NCBI GenBank assembly: GCA_030697645.1
Contig: JAUYPI010000006.1
Coordinates: forward strand, 12,017-76,016
Direction: 5' to 3'
Source: a bacterium
GTDB taxonomy: Bacteria; Patescibacteriota; Minisyncoccia; Phycocordibacterales; VMGT01
Length of the DNA stretch: 64,000 nt
The notes below the pieces were generated by a model, which was not told where the DNA came from, ran no database searches, and saw nothing but the letters and a program-made list of their open reading frames with translations. Shown here piece by piece: positions 13,324-35,436 of the stretch (position 1 is the first letter of the stretch; each line of letters starts with the position of its first letter). The translations under genes were made by a program, and so were the position numbers.

Positions 13324-13386
13324 TTTTTAGCTTTTAGCGCTAGGTTTTTAGTGCTACTGTGTTAGTCCTCTAAAAGCTAATAGTCT
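13324..13386. repeat. Family-2 palindromic element (AGCTTTTAGC ... CTAAAAGCT)
   Basis: ttagcttttagcgctagg...cctctaaaagctaatag. Confidence 0.7.
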
Positions 13387-13740
13387 ATGCGTCACCACAA
13401 CAGAATCAAAAAATTCGGCCGCGTCGCGCGGCAGCGGAGAGCACTGATCTCCTCGCTCGCCTCATCCCTCATTCGTCATGAGAAGATCACGACGACCGAG
13501 GCGAAAGCAAAGGAGCTTCGGCCATTTATTGAGCGCCTCATCACCGTTGCGCGGCAGGGCACACTCGCCGCGAGGCGAACGACCCTTGCGCGACTTGGCG
13601 GAGAGAGTGTCGCTGCGCGTCGGCTCATGAGCTCTGTTGCCTCGCGCTATCTCTCTCGACCCGGGGGCTACACGCGCATCACAAAACTGCGTGCGCGCAC
13701 CAGCGACAGGGCACCGCAGGCGCGCATTGAATTTGTATGA
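13387..13740 (+). CDS. rplQ: Ribosomal protein L17
   Basis: MRHHNRIKKFGRVARQRRALISSLASSLIRHEKITTTEAKAKELRP typical L17. Confidence 0.92.
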   Translation: MRHHNRIKKFGRVARQRRALISSLASSLIRHEKITTTEAKAKELRPFIERLITVARQGTLAARRTTLARLGGESVAARRLMSSVASRYLSRPGGYTRITKLRARTSDRAPQARIEFV

Positions 13741-14108
13741 CAGCCACTGATCAGACACTCTATACAATCGACGCCCGAGCACAGCGTCTCGGGCGGGTTG
13801 CCGCCGATGCGGCGCGCGTCCTTATGGGCAAACACACGCCCCACTACGAGCGCAATCGGATAAACGGGCAGCGCGTACGCATCGAGCACGCGGCAGCACT
13901 CCAGATTGACGAGCGAAAAAAGAAGCATACAATATATTCGCGCCACTCGGGCTATCCGGGCTCGCTCAAGCGCGTAACGCTCGCCGCGATCGAGACGAAG
14001 CGCGGTCGAGAGCGTGCATACAGCGAGGCGCTCCGTCGGGCAGTCTACGGCATGCTGCCGAAGAACAAGCTGAGGCCGAGGATGATGAAACGGCTTGAAA
14101 TCATATAG
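13737..14108 (+). CDS. rplM: Ribosomal protein L13
   Basis: ATGA overlap with the rplQ stop; TLYTIDARAQRLGRVAADAARVLMGKH typical L13. Confidence 0.9.
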   Translation: MTATDQTLYTIDARAQRLGRVAADAARVLMGKHTPHYERNRINGQRVRIEHAAALQIDERKKKHTIYSRHSGYPGSLKRVTLAAIETKRGRERAYSEALRRAVYGMLPKNKLRPRMMKRLEII

Positions 14109-14172
14109 AGAAAATGATGTAGAGACACGCAGCAAGCAGAACGTCCTCAGCATCAAAACCTAAATGCCGATA

Positions 14173-14284
14173 AAATTTTCAATTATCAATTTTCAATTTT
14201 CAATCAATTTTCAATTTCTCAATTTTTCAAACACAACGCCGACGTCGTCCATTGAAAATTGTAAAATTGAAAATTGAAAATTTA
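14173..14284. repeat. Family-1 palindromic A-tract element
   Basis: aattttcaattatcaattttcaattttcaatcaattttcaatttctc...caaacacaacgccgacgtcgtcc... Confidence 0.85.
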
Positions 14285-14290
14285 AACTGT

Positions 14291-14713
14291 ATGCCTTCCT
14301 CAACCACCCCCAAACCCAAGAAATCCGACCGCTACATCGAGGCAGTTGGCCGCCGCAAGACGGCGATTGCGCGCGTGCGGATCTCACCTGCTTCAAAAAC
14401 GAACGTCTTGATCAACGACCGCTCGATCGAATCGTACTTTCCAGTGGCCACCCTTGCGCAGAGTGTCCTCTCGCCGCTTGCGCTCGCGCCGTCGGCGCAT
14501 TTTAGCGTAAGCGTCCATGTTGTCGGCGGGGGCATTCGCGGCCAGGCAGAGGCGGTGCGCCACGGTATCGCGCGCGCGCTCACGCTCTCGAGCGCTGATC
14601 TCCGGACCCCTCTGAAGCGCGCTGGATTTCTCACGCGTGATCCTCGTGCCAAGGAGCGGCGCAAATTCGGGCTCAAAAAAGCGCGCAAGGCACCGCAATG
14701 GAGTAAACGATAG
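14291..14713 (+). CDS. rpsI: Ribosomal protein S9
   Basis: YIEAVGRRKTAIARVRISP...GGGIRGQAEAVRHGIARAL...KKARKAPQWSKR; ATG at 14291 directly after the repeat. Confidence 0.9.
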   Translation: MPSSTTPKPKKSDRYIEAVGRRKTAIARVRISPASKTNVLINDRSIESYFPVATLAQSVLSPLALAPSAHFSVSVHVVGGGIRGQAEAVRHGIARALTLSSADLRTPLKRAGFLTRDPRAKERRKFGLKKARKAPQWSKR

Positions 14714-14767
14714 TTTACTCCATTGCGGGCGAAGGGGGTCGGGGAAACTGTAGTTTAGTTCCCTCTA

Positions 14768-14886
14768 AATTTTCAATTATCAATTTTCAATCAATTTTGC
14801 AATGAATCAATTTTCAAACACGACGTCGTCCGTCACTCAGTCATTGAAACGTTGAAAATTCATTGAAAATTGCAAAATTGAAAATT
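14768..14886. repeat. Family-1 palindromic A-tract element
   Basis: Same architecture. Confidence 0.85.
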
Positions 14887-14896
14887 AGACAATCCT

Positions 14897-32590: not shown

Positions 32591-32801
32591 GGGGGATGAT
32601 GGCGCAACCGCTCACGCCTTAAAATTTTGCGCTCGAGCTTCGGCGTTTAGAAATAACAGTCGCCTCATTGACGAAAAACGCATAACTCGCCTGCGGGCTC
32701 AAACAGATGCGTTTTTCTATTCGGCTCCTTTATTTCCAAAACGCCTCTCGCTATGCGCAAAATTTTAAGGCGTGAGCGGTTCCGGCGTGAGAGTGGTTTG
32801 A

Positions 32802-33272
32802 CTACGTAATTCCGAGCAACTGCTCTATCTTCGCCACGATCTCGTTCGGCGATGTGTTCGCTTTGACAGCGTAGTCCGCAGCCCCGATCTGCCTTGCTTT
32901 CTCAAGGTCGTCTCGTTGACCGAGATTGGAGAGAATAAGCACGGGGATATGTTTCATCTTTTCATTCGCCTTGATCTCGCGCAGGAGCACGAAGCCGTCC
33001 TCGCCGGGAAGGATGAGATCAAGGCAAACGAGATTGATCGGCTTTTCGGCAAGGAGTGCGCGACCCTCTTCGACCGTCTCCGCCCGAAAGACGGTAAATT
33101 TCTGATCGTGGAGCTTTCGCTCAAGCATGCCGCCGAGAAACGGGTCGTCTTCAACAACGAGGAGCACAGCGCGAGTCTCCTCAGGTGAGATTTCTCGTGG
33201 AGCATCGCCTGATCCTGCCACACTGTCCGCACCGGGACCGGTGGCGCTCTCTTGAATGCTGTCATCATTCAT
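32802..33272 (-). CDS. Response regulator, receiver domain only (CheY-like)
   Basis: LLVVEDDP...LDLILPGEDGF...PVLILSNLG...ADYAVK receiver motifs; ATG at 33272. Confidence 0.8.
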   Translation of the reverse strand: MNDDSIQESATGPGADSVAGSGDAPREISPEETRAVLLVVEDDPFLGGMLERKLHDQKFTVFRAETVEEGRALLAEKPINLVCLDLILPGEDGFVLLREIKANEKMKHIPVLILSNLGQRDDLEKARQIGAADYAVKANTSPNEIVAKIEQLLGIT

Positions 33273-33550
33273 AGAAGTATTGAGAGTATAACAAAGAGAG
33301 CGCACGGCGCACAAGGACACCCCTGTGTATAACGTGCGCTTGACAGGGGATGCAGGCCGCGTTACATTGTGATATAAGGTCAAAATGTTACATGTCAAAT
33401 GTCATGAACTCGGATTTCGAGCCCCGAATATTCGGATTTGGATAAGTCTTTTTTATCAGTTAATTTTTTACGCCGAGATCGCTTCGCACTGTCGTCCGCG
33501 CTCATCGAGGCGTCGGTAATTTCCGAAGCGATTCTCGCGTACCACATAGT

Positions 33551-34741
33551 ATGGCAGACTTTGAGAGAACAAAGCCGCACGTCAACGTCGGCACCATCGG
33601 GCACGTTGACCACGGCAAGACGACCCTGACCGCTGCGATGCTTCACGTCTTGAACCTCGCCGGCCAGAAGGTCAAGATGCGCAAAGTTGACGAGATCGAC
33701 TCTGCACCGGAGGAGCGCGCGCGCGGCATTACGATCGCGCTCTCGCACAATGAGTACGAGACCGCGGAGCGCCACTATGCGCACGTCGACGCGCCGGGCC
33801 ACCAGGACTACATTAAGAACATGATCACCGGCGCCGCGCAGATGGACGGGGCGATCATCGTGGTCGCGGCCACCGACGGCGTCATGCCGCAGACCCGCGA
33901 ACACATTCTCCTGGCGCGCCAGGTCGGCGTACCGCGCATTGTCGTCTTCCTCAATAAGGTGGACATGGTGGACGACCCTGACCTCATTGATCTCGTCGAG
34001 GAGGAGGTGCGCGAGCTCCTGAGTAAGTACGACTACGATGGCGCAAGCGTGCCGGTTGTGCGCGGCTCGGCACTGAAGGCCCTTGACGCAAAGTCAGCGG
34101 ACGATGAGTGGGCGAAAAAGATTCTCGAGCTCACGAAGGCGCTCGATACGTTCATCCCAATCCCTGAGCGCGACACGGACAAGCCGTTTCTGATGCCGGT
34201 CGAGGACATTTTCTCGATCGAAGGCCGAGGGACGGTCGCAACCGGTCGCATTGAGCGCGGGAAGGTCAAAGTCGGCGAGGAGGTGGAGATTATCGGCCTT
34301 CAGAATACTGCGAAAACCGTGGTGACCGGCATCGAGATGTTTAATAAGTCGCTCCAAGAGGGCATTGCTGGCGACAACGCGGGCATACTCCTGCGTGGTA
34401 CGAAGAAAGAGGACATTCACCGCGGCCAGGTGCTCGCTAAGCCCGGCTCGGTAACGCCGCACACGGAGTTTGACGCGGAGATCTATGTGCTCTCGAAAGA
34501 CGAAGGTGGGCGTCATACGCCGTTCTTCAGTGGTTACAAGCCGCAGTTCTACATCCGCACGACGGATGTGACCGGCGACGTCACTCTGCCCGAGGGCACC
34601 GAGATGGTGATGCCGGGGGATACCGTGAGCGCGAAGGTGAAGCTCATCGCCCCGGTCGCGCTCGAGGAAAAGCAGCGGTTCGCAATCCGCGAAGGAGGGA
34701 AGACCGTCGGAGCCGGAGCCGTAACTAAAATTATAGCGTAG
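33551..34741 (+). CDS. tuf: Elongation factor Tu
   Basis: [25 protein letters not shown]; 396 aa. Confidence 0.97.
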
Positions 34742-34781
34742 CAATGGTAACCACCCACCAATAGTTCTGATTCGATTGGTC

Positions 34782-34910
34782 AAATTTTCAATTTTACAAT
34801 TTCCAATCAATTTTCAATGTGTCAATGACTCAATGACGGGCGAAGTCGTGTTTGAAAATTGGGTCATTGAAAATTCACTGAAAATTGAAAATTGTAAATT
34901 GAAAATTTCG
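34782..34910. repeat. Family-1 palindromic A-tract element (inverted orientation)
   Basis: ...caatgacgggcgaagtcgtgtttgaaaattggg... Confidence 0.85.
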
Positions 34911-34949
34911 AATGGGAGAGGTGGGTGGGCTTTTGCTTGATTTTTTGCC

Positions 34950-35318
34950 ATGGTTACTAAATCAACGGCTCCGCGTAAGCGCGCCGCGGCAGCGCGCAAA
35001 AAGGAGGAGGTTTCGCACAAGCTCCGCATTCGCATCCGCGCCTACGAGCACAAGATTCTTGACTCGTCCGTAAAGCAGGTCATGGACACCGCGCTTCGCT
35101 ACGATGCGCGGGTCGAGGGTCCGACGCCGCTTCCGGTTGAGATCAAAAAGTACACAGTCAACCGCTCATCGTTCGTGCACAAGAACGCGCGCGAGCAGTT
35201 CGAGATGCGCACGCACAAGCGCCTCATTGACATCCTCGACCCGGCGCCGAAGTTGATCGAAGCGCTTACGAATCTCACGTTGCCGTCGGGAGTGAATGTG
35301 GACGTGAAGATGATGTAA
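34950..35318 (+). CDS. rpsJ: Ribosomal protein S10 with short basic N-terminal extension
   Basis: LRIRIRAYEHKILDSSVKQVMDTA... typical S10. Confidence 0.92.
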   Translation: MVTKSTAPRKRAAAARKKEEVSHKLRIRIRAYEHKILDSSVKQVMDTALRYDARVEGPTPLPVEIKKYTVNRSSFVHKNAREQFEMRTHKRLIDILDPAPKLIEALTNLTLPSGVNVDVKMM

Positions 35319-35325
35319 AGGTTTG

Positions 35326-35436
35326 AGCTTTTAGCTTATAGCTGTTAGCTTTTAGGGGTTGTCGCGGCGTGCGCGAAGCACGCAATCGTTAGTCTGTCGT
35401 GCCTCTAAAAGCTATAAGCTAACAGCTAAGAGCTTT
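35326..35436. repeat. Family-2 palindromic element
   Basis: gagcttttagcttatagctgttagcttttagg...GC hairpin...ctctaaaagctataagctaacagctaagagc. Confidence 0.8.

Follow-up and report, generated by a model that had tools for sequence, protein, structure and literature searches.

The 64,000 nucleotides of DNA analyzed here, hereafter the window (positions 12,017 to 76,016 of contig JAUYPI010000006.1, assembly GCA_030697645.1), belong to an uncultivated Kaiserbacteria-like bacterium of the Candidate Phyla Radiation (CPR). In four spacers directly before the genes for L17, DnaJ, EF-G and L3, the window carries copies of a repeat whose arms are built from AGCT-containing heptamers. This repeat is termed family 2, and a second heptamer hairpin of the same gene strings is termed family 1. 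Family 2 is a small non-coding family of foldback repeats, in which two copies are full hairpins, one is decayed and one is a half copy. The interpretation we favor, tentatively and at somewhat less than an even chance, is that such foldback repeats propagate as DNA, are co-transcribed with the surrounding genes as intercistronic stem-loops and place their 3' arm in the initiation region of the next gene. The AGCT heptad repeat is a widespread, little-described gene-boundary element and is not particular to this genome.

The four AGCTTTTAGC sites are all related hairpin copies with arms composed of runs of a 7-base repeat. A first-pass annotation of the sequence had placed them correctly and had correctly named the flanking genes (L17, DnaJ, DnaK, EF-G, S10 and L3). 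Their sequences are present far beyond chance. For example, AGCTTTTAG occurs 10 times in the window compared to 0.42 expected, a count reached in 0 of 100 shuffles, and AGCTNNNAGCTNNNAGC occurs 17 times compared to 0.03 expected. All matches to both strings lie inside the four sites. A period-7 scan and an alignment resolved each arm into a tandem array of heptamers, (AGCTNNT)n for the 5' arm and (ANNAGCT)n for the 3' arm, in which a TAGCT core is joined to two free positions. Both arms of copy 4, the 5' arm of copy 2 and the 3' arm of copy 3 each have four head-to-tail 7-nt units, where three or more define a heptanucleotide tandem repeat. The right arms of all four sites also share an inner junction, CTCT(A/C)AAAGCTA, which extends past the heptamer itself. 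Thus, the four sites are homologous copies. The centers of copies 1, 2 and 4 are unrelated except for the CTCTAAAAGCTA junction. The coordinates of all four copies and of the other elements discussed below are given in Table 1.

Table 1. Heptamer-hairpin elements located in the window.
Element	Start	End	Strand	Location and basis
Family 2 copy 1, decayed	13322	13378	+	ORF185/rplQ spacer; aligned to the other arms; L17 by Pfam
Family 2 copy 2, full hairpin	17598	17709	+	dnaK/dnaJ spacer; branched fold; DnaJ by domains; DnaK via HSP70 at the orthologous place
Family 2 copy 3, 3' arm only	26316	26345	+	before fusA; EF-G by Pfam
Family 2 copy 4, best copy	35326	35434	+	rpsJ/rplC spacer; sequence read, fold; S10 and L3 by Pfam
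Family 1, (CAATTTT)n..(AAAATTG)n, ~125 nt, ten copies	7585	37620	both orientations	repeat families D1-D9 and I1-I24; alignment A1; folds
Compound palindrome, 296 nt	31100	31395	-	HisK/FIST spacer, both genes minus-strand (signaling); fold -102.7 kcal/mol
(ACATTTG)n...(CAAATGT)n hairpin	38026	38110	+	rplW/rplB spacer; -26.1 kcal/mol, z -1.9

The copies differ in completeness. In copy 4 the 5' arm (35326-35355) reads AGCTTTT AGCTTAT AGCTGTT AGCTTTT AG, a GC-rich inner hairpin stands around 35367-35384 and the 3' arm (35405-35434) reads CT AAAAGCT ATAAGCT AACAGCT AAGAGCT. The S10 stop codon ends at 35318, and TTTTTGT separates the 3' arm from the rplC ATG at 35442. Copy 2 has a 5' arm of four units (17598-17628), a center (17629-17647) and decayed 3' units (17648-17672). 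A GC hairpin, CCAGCCCTTTGGGCGCAAAGGGCTATGG, is nested within this partly decayed 3' arm at 17673-17700, and the outer unit CTAAAAGCT (17701-17709) is followed by CGT and the dnaJ ATG at 17713. In copy 1 the decayed four-unit 5' arm (13322-13352; AATTTTT AGCTTTT AGCGCTA GGTTTTT AGT) overlaps the stop codon of open reading frame (ORF) 185, and the 3' junction CTCTAAAAGCT (13368-13378) is followed by AATAGTCT and the rplQ ATG at 13387. Copy 3 reads CT AAAAGCT AAAAGCT ATCAGCT AACAGCT, with TGTACT between it and the fusA ATG at 26352, and a terminator-like hairpin with a T-run lies upstream of it at 26266-26297. The two arms around an inner hairpin of the earlier description are present in full only in copies 4 and 2; copy 1 is decayed, and copy 3, which that description had called a half copy, is a 3' arm alone. 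The arm sequence originally quoted is exact only at 35326-35355, since the dnaK/dnaJ copy has its middle units permuted, and the right arms are not exact reverse complements of the left arms, as the variable dinucleotides are out of register. In copies 2 and 4 (17598-17672 and 35326-35434) the dinucleotides of the 3' arm follow the order of the 5' arm (TTT, TAT, GTT, ..) and are not mirrored as in a true palindrome, so that a 2x2 loop recurs every 7 bp. This preserved order was rejected as a general pattern because it was not seen in the hairpins of other genomes read by eye, and it is treated as an anecdote.

The ATGs that follow copies 1 to 4 open reading frames with N-termini typical of L17, DnaJ, EF-G and L3. 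Measured from the last AGCT, the distance to the ATG is 8, 3, 6 and 7 nt in copies 1 to 4, respectively, and not 3-6 nt as first reported. No GGAG, GAGG or AGGA, as in a Shine-Dalgarno (SD) sequence, was found upstream of these four ATGs. The elements span the whole spacer, beginning 0-27 nt past the upstream stop codon. Because the spacer is filled, the abutment of the elements on the ATG that was noted in the first-pass annotation is partly a matter of geometry, although an orientation-specific tendency of these arrays to lie near start codons is real and is documented in other genomes below. In family 1 and in the families of the sister genomes the elements end 8-75 nt from the ATG.

Strong hairpins are predicted for only two of the family 2 copies, copies 4 and 2. 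The predicted fold of copy 4 has a free energy of -56.1 kcal/mol (z -5.0), and 2x2 loops divide it into stems of 12, 5 and 14 bp. These internal loops arise because the two arms do not match in register at their variable dinucleotides. Copy 2 is predicted to form a branched structure (-46.1 kcal/mol, z -2.8). Copy 1 has an 11-bp stem (-15.8 kcal/mol, z -1.0), which is no better than that of shuffled sequences, and copy 3 has no hairpin (z +0.6). The predicted folds of the family 1 copies have z values of -4.2 to -6.6. The stem lengths and internal loops predicted for copy 4 match the shape of an RNase III substrate, for which ~20 bp or more of double-stranded RNA, often with internal loops, is typical. 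Rfam had no matches in the whole window at the gathering threshold. At the E-value threshold, copy 4 matched only plant microRNA precursor hairpins (25 bits compared to a gathering score of 100) and copy 2 had no match. No tRNA or transfer-messenger RNA genes were found in the window.

Family 2 is one of at least four heptamer-hairpin families in the window, which supports the earlier proposal that a second family with the architecture of family 1 is part of something general. The nearest named relatives of the L3 protein are from Candidatus Kaiserbacteria and Parcubacteria. The genes are arranged as infA-L36-S13-S11-S4-rpoA-ORF185-L17-L13-S9-GrpE-DnaK-DnaJ, fusA separately, and EF-Tu-S10-L3-(750 nt)-L4-L23-L2. 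Nearly every spacer of these gene strings holds a long A/T-rich hairpin with arms that likewise have a heptad period. Of the 18 spacers that border translation or chaperone genes, 15 hold hairpins or arrays, compared to 3 of the 24 remaining spacers with a length of 40 nt or more (Fisher p=5e-6). None were found in the last 25 kb of the window (39-64 kb), despite spacers of 300-1000 nt in that region.

Family 1 has copies at 7585-7690, 9632-9775, 10165-10310, 10752-10898 (reverse complement), 11548-11680, 14168-14290, 14756-14895, 15498-15645, 34778-34915 (reverse complement) and 37478-37620. They align over ~125 nt, including a conserved, non-palindromic center, and with respect to the genes eight are forward and two are reverse. 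The conserved asymmetric center and the presence of both orientations indicate copied DNA and not a convergent structure. Possible TA ends, together with the conserved center, make family 1 a closer fit to a miniature inverted-repeat transposable element (MITE) than family 2. In the compound palindrome at 31100-31395, the outer arms are CAAAA-type heptamers, the dominant family in a sister genome, and the loop holds a nested CCAA-type element.

The window is syntenic with two sister genomes, GCA_964539325.1 (loci L121 and L249) and GCA_964557965.1 (loci L125 and L251), which have identities to the window of 87-90% in L3 and 83-93% in DnaJ. Nearly all of the spacers filled in the window are filled in the sisters as well, by different heptamers. 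In the first sister, (CAAAAGY)n..(RCTTTTG)n hairpins occupy the spacers S13|S11, S11|S4, S4|rpoA, rpoA|L17, L13|S9, S9|grpE, grpE|dnaK, L4|L23, L23|L2, L22|S3 and S3|L16. The second sister has a (CAAATGN)-type hairpin in the grpE|dnaK spacer. In the S10|L3 spacer, which holds copy 4 in the window, the first sister carries (TAGGTNN)4 as well as other hairpins, and the second carries (CCAATTT)n..(AAATTGG)n. Neither AGCT-type nor family 1 arrays were found in 42 kb of sister sequence. Upstream of rplC, only the last ~15 nt before the ATG (AGCTTTTTTGTATGAA) are conserved between the window and the first sister. The stable position of the elements with replaced sequence, together with the nested example at 31100-31395, suggests that new elements land in older hairpins.

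More distant relatives with ~66-68% L3 identity (L126-L128) have compact operons without heptamer hairpins, and the hairpins of the window and its sisters are thus a recent expansion. The ribosomal-protein genes of these relatives are equally SD-less and have U-rich leaders, for example TTTTTCATTAACCTATG, while GGAGG is present before other genes in the clade. Since orthologues in these hairpin-free genomes are equally SD-less, initiation without an SD belongs to the lineage and to this set of genes and does not result from the hairpins.

AGCT-heptad arrays were also located outside the lineage, in agreement with the suggestion that the arrangement is general. The pattern AGCTNNTAGCTNNTAGCTNNTAGC was scanned in one genome per species and in IMG/VR viral contigs, and a much stricter pattern, AGCTTTTAGCTNNTAGCTNNTAGCTTTTAG (26 fixed bases), was scanned in metagenomes. 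Each of the three scans gave at least 120 matches; the copy numbers and taxonomic spread are lower bounds, and the counts that follow are among the matches listed. The largest share came from Terriglobia and other Acidobacteriota, and further matches came from cyanobacteria, Bacteroidota, Firmicutes, Proteobacteria, Gemmatimonadota, Chloroflexota, several CPR groups and phage contigs, with contig GC contents of 0.26 to 0.71. Many are single arrays of up to ~18 perfect units, while many others have an inverted array as a partner no more than 250 nt away. The pairs have a fixed polarity, as the T-arm comes first in 60 and the order is reversed in 3, and the three reverse-order pairs are adjacent elements flanking small phage genes.

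Proximity of the AGCT heptad to start codons is a real, orientation-specific tendency in many genomes. An ATG was counted if it opened an ORF of at least 80 codons. In the genome and metagenome matches, an A-type array ended 0-12 nt before such an ATG in 49 of 335 cases compared to 2 of 329 in the opposite orientation (Fisher p=2e-13), with a mode of 6 nt. Partnerless arrays gave 25 of 196 compared to 2 of 191 on the opposite strand with a mode of 6 nt, and viral contigs gave 22 of 220 compared to 3 of 211 with the same mode. About two thirds of the arrays had no such ORF within 60 nt. The downstream genes, identified by their N-termini, include those for S9, S19, L2, L6, L17, L20, L25, L29 and EF-Tu as well as atpA, atpG, atpD, nuoK, nuoM, glyA and pheT. 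In Acidobacteria the last unit is often AGGAGCT, which puts an SD 7-9 nt from the ATG. The nearness of the T-arm to upstream stop codons (118 of 335 compared to 33 of 329) was set aside as confounded, since TAG is present in every frame of the T-arm itself.

Individual contigs illustrate the arrangement. In a metagenome contig (L162, GC 0.59), an AGCT-heptad array or hairpin precedes each of the consecutive genes atpA, atpG and atpD and ends 6-9 nt before the ATG. An IMG/VR contig (L285, GC 0.60) has 8 pattern matches in 11.5 kb. In this contig and in another phage contig (L345), many AGCT-heptad hairpins with a conserved GGCGCGC..GCGCGCC center lie between consecutive genes. L345 also has small genes that are flanked upstream by an A-arm with an SD and at their stop codon by a T-arm.

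The favored interpretation brings these observations together as follows. The heptamer families would have spread as DNA by copying, by slippage of the arrays and by insertion into existing hairpins, and, in this Kaiserbacteria-like lineage, would have colonized the short spacers within highly expressed operons, with repeated replacement. The elements lie inside operons and are therefore most likely transcribed within the polycistronic mRNA, where a long stem-loop would stand between the upstream stop codon and the downstream start codon. A self-folding insert is looped out, so the stop and start would remain close in space, and this closeness may be the reason that only palindromic inserts are tolerated. 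If the elements fold in vivo, their likely effects on mRNA stability, by analogy with other intercistronic stem-loops, would be those of a barrier to 3' exonucleases and/or a site of RNase III-type processing. The A-rich 3' arm and the short U/A-rich linker would make up the SD-less initiation region of the next gene and could in this way affect its translation. The points counted in favor of this interpretation are the heptamer anatomy and homology of the four copies, the strong hairpins predicted for copies 2 and 4 and for family 1, the asymmetric center and two orientations of family 1, the other heptamers in the same spacers of the sisters, the compact operons of more distant relatives, the enrichment in translation and chaperone spacers, the fixed polarity, the nearness of A-type arrays to ATGs, the nested element at 31100-31395 and the presence in the window of an RNase II/R-family gene (RNB domain, 4365-6023).

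Several results weigh against it. First, stems selected as RNA are expected to contain G.U pairs and to fold better in the sense strand. However, sense and antisense folding energies showed no bias in the window, and 24 oriented hairpins of other genomes divided 13 to 11 between sense and antisense (Wilcoxon p=0.36). Secondly, covariation is not visible in family 1, where the copies are too alike to be informative. Third, neither copy 1 nor copy 3 folds convincingly, so their retention is not due to a stem-loop. Lastly, no transposase, target-site duplication or conserved internal sequence that would account for the spread of family 2 was found. A scan of 45 ORFs of the 64-kb window against Pfam and NCBIfam found no transposase, no REP-associated tyrosine transposase (RAYT, IS200/IS605-like) and no RNase III domain. 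No flanking target-site duplication was found in the arm alignments of family 2, which thus differs from a MITE although its arms act as terminal repeats.

The strongest rival is considered unlikely. It holds that the elements are purely selfish or neutral, either a MITE- or REP-like parasite (REP, repetitive extragenic palindrome) or an array grown by slippage, and are seen only where self-folding inserts do no harm. The first-pass annotation had argued from the two distinct families against a mobile element. That argument is contradicted by the dispersal of family 1 in both orientations with a conserved core, by the different families in the same spacers of the sisters and by the nesting of one element in another, all of which also count in favor of a selfish repeat. 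The rapid turnover between sisters and the absence from more distant relatives, the folding without strand bias and the decayed or partial state of copies 1 and 3 also agree with it. In addition, heptanucleotides are the commonest long simple-sequence repeats in prokaryotes according to the summary of Mrazek 2007 given in PMC4679880. However, a neutral parasite should fill the large, unconstrained spacers at 39-64 kb, which are empty, while the tight translation and chaperone spacers are filled. The 60:3 polarity, the 25:2 preference of partnerless arrays for having the A-type strand face the adjacent ATG and the recurrence of the 6-nt mode in bacteria and phages likewise speak against a neutral repeat. 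Taken together, the operon enrichment, the fixed polarity and the biased orientation of single arrays therefore disfavor pure neutrality.

Two further interpretations assign the heptads a direct role in gene expression. The broader one, which is somewhat less probable than a selfish origin and is offered as speculation, is that the AGCT-heptad hairpin is a conserved gene-boundary cassette of many phyla and phages, laid out as stop codon, (UAGCUNN)n, GC hairpin, (ANNAGCU)n, ~6 nt and AUG. The cassette would be read by a near-universal factor with a footprint that sets the 7-nt period, such as a cold-shock-domain protein or the ribosome acting with S1, and would give SD-independent, switchable expression of internal cistrons in the most highly expressed operons. 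The other CPR heptamer families would be sequence variants of the same device. The narrower one, a generalization of the first-pass proposal that is rated slightly lower again, is that the AUG-adjacent heptads are a translation-initiation device which recruits or positions ribosomes without an SD, directly, via S1 or via a protein with a 7-nt footprint (e.g. a cold-shock-domain protein); in a variant, the 5' arm acts as a switch that masks or unmasks the initiation site. Such a device is supported by the orientation-specific nearness of A-type arrays to the start codons of highly expressed cistrons in many phyla and in phages (mode of 6 nt) and by the SD that the last unit often supplies in Acidobacteria. 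As read from the sequence, each heptad also carries a stop codon, and three units would close all three frames just before the AUG. TAACTGA repeats stand just upstream of the SD-less fusA, rplC and rpsD starts in Beggiatoaceae (PMC4679880), and in Nostoc the expression of recF and recO is affected by heptamers close to start codons (10.1101/2022.06.06.494920). However, the same genes in the hairpin-free relatives are SD-less and have no arrays. Family 1 and the sister hairpins end at variable distances of up to 75 nt from the ATG with a 3' arm that may be A-rich or U-rich, the majority of arrays elsewhere have no nearby ORF of the required length, and in the hairpin form the 3' arm is paired and not free.

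A function in transcription, with the elements as internal promoters that give leaderless or short-leader mRNA or as partial terminators that set polarity, is quite improbable. The arms of family 1 match TTGAAA-17-GAAAAT on both strands, with 21 promoter-like sites compared to 6.6 expected, and at S13, S11 and L23 the ATG lies 7-9 nt after the last -10-like hexamer. For terminators, TTTTTTGT follows copy 4 and the sister hairpins end in T-runs. However, the promoter geometry fits family 1 only. A sigma-70 promoter or leaderless start was rejected for family 2, as no -35/-10 match at 16-18 nt spacing was present in any arm, and true consensus promoters exist elsewhere in the window, for example at 11693-11720. 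Intrinsic terminators were also rejected: 0 of the 4 copies were called as one, only copy 4 is followed by T6, and the polarity of a U-rich 5' arm and an A-rich 3' arm is the reverse of that of an intrinsic terminator, on both strands. Least probable of all, and very unlikely, is that the heptads are DNA-binding arrays for a nucleoid, replication or regulatory protein on double-stranded or cruciform DNA, since, although the structure is symmetric on both strands without RNA strand bias and heptads bind protein elsewhere (e.g. the TTTTGAT repeats of the ctx promoter, 10.1101/2021.05.14.444153), a sequence-specific binder would not tolerate different heptamers in the same spacers of sisters and the orientation bias of single arrays points to a constraint at the transcript or translation level.

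Other features of the window were noted in or near the same operons. ORF185 (12766-13323), between rpoA and rplQ, has a third-position GC content (GC3) of 0.33 compared to ~0.65-0.75 in its neighbors and no Pfam or NCBIfam match. It is absent from the sister genome, where only a hairpin separates rpoA and rplQ (L249 4949-5049), and is probably a recent insertion. A connection of ORF185 to copy 1 or to another low-GC ORF of 185 amino acids was rejected, as the two ORFs have no similarity and neither has a family match. Directly after the S9 stop codon, a 45-nt non-coding stretch, TAGTTTACTCCATTGCGGGCGAAGGGGGTCGGGGAAACTGTAGTTT (14712-14756), is near-identical in the sister (L249 6392-6436) while the flanking hairpins are unrelated; it may be a conserved regulatory RNA upstream of grpE-dnaK. 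The L3/L4 spacer (36060-36809) is 750 nt long compared to ~25 nt in distant relatives. Each of its strands contains small ORFs, and it also holds a strong GC hairpin (CCCCCGCC..GGCGGGGG), an arrangement kept in the sister (L121 10619-11620). A (GAAAGTG)n heptamer array (39010-39044) lies directly after the L2 stop codon. The S10 operon is interrupted after L2, where a gene for a peptidoglycan-binding protein stands in place of S19, L22 and S3. A further palindromic repeat that is not related to the heptamer families, GTCATTGCGAG..AATCCAG..CTGGATT..CTCGCAATGAC, is present at 25716-25906, with a partial second copy at 213-254 (repeat D18).

These elements are of interest for several reasons. First, the window shows the heptads in an unusually readable form, paired into hairpins that are packed throughout the operons for ribosomal proteins and chaperones of a bacterium with a small genome. 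Secondly, the sister genomes with other heptamers at the same boundaries provide a natural three-genome comparison for repeat turnover. Third, the fixed polarity and the 6-nt start offset in Acidobacteria, cyanobacteria, Bacteroidota, CPR and phage contigs offer a testable hypothesis on the SD-less expression of internal cistrons. Lastly, the elements affect annotation, as they fragment short-read assemblies and inflate ORF calls. An independent short-read assembly of the same organism (L252, a 7.4-kb Logan contig) stops inside the family 1 element at about window position 7630. Sequencing run SRR13727529 contains this organism.

The elements can be compared with several known systems. REP/BIME, ERIC and Correia/NEMIS elements are dispersed imperfect palindromes of 30-150 nt that lie in operons in either orientation, tend to land in existing copies and are co-transcribed, and their RNA hairpins affect the stability of the mRNA or serve as substrates for RNase III or RNase E. 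To our knowledge none of them is composed of heptamer arrays. They also differ from family 2 in having a RAYT partner (REP) or defined terminal repeats and TA duplications (Correia, ERIC), none of which were found for family 2. The intergenic RNase III hairpins of phage T7 leave a hairpin on the 3' end of the upstream message. They resemble the long stem-loops with internal loops that are predicted between cistrons of the window, but they are unique sequences and not repeat families. The start-associated sequences of cluster K mycobacteriophages (SAS/ESAS), reportedly described by Pope in 2011, are said to be 13-bp motifs that include the SD, 3-8 bp upstream of many starts, sometimes with an inverted repeat just upstream. 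In contrast to the AGCT heptads, they are a single motif of one phage cluster without heptad periodicity. The cyanobacterial short tandemly repeated repetitive (STRR) sequences, which Mazel is said to have described in 1990, reportedly have the consensus units CCCCAGT, TTGGTCA and CAACAGT. The family 2 unit, AGCTNNT, is unrelated to these, and its host is a CPR bacterium and not a cyanobacterium.

The long simple-sequence repeats of prokaryotes, of which heptanucleotides are the commonest (Mrazek 2007, summarised in PMC4679880), and the STRR sequences share with the AGCT heptads a 7-nt unit and a tandem, intergenic and probably slippage-grown organization. Only direct arrays are described for them, however, while the AGCT heptads show inverted pairs, a fixed polarity, a GC-rich center and proximity to starts. 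No description of inverted heptad arrays was found in the literature on AGCTTTTAGCTTTT, on related strings or on the palindromic repeats of CPR genomes. Heptamer repeats near start codons are reported to influence the expression of recF and recO in Nostoc (10.1101/2022.06.06.494920). The TAACTGA direct repeats that occur in marine Beggiatoaceae as well as in Bacteroidetes and some cyanobacteria (MacGregor 2015, PMC4679880), for which the author proposed binding of S1, Csp or CsrA, differ in their heptamer, in being almost all direct (169 direct and 1 inverted, compared to the paired inverted arrays of the window and an inverted partner arm in 3 of 4 family 2 copies) and in having no described variable positions. 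They are alike, however, in being tandem 7-nt intergenic units that end a few nt before SD-less starts, as all four family 2 copies do, and in lying inside ribosomal-protein operons before the same genes as in the window (fusA, rplC and rpsD), with a scattered distribution across phyla.

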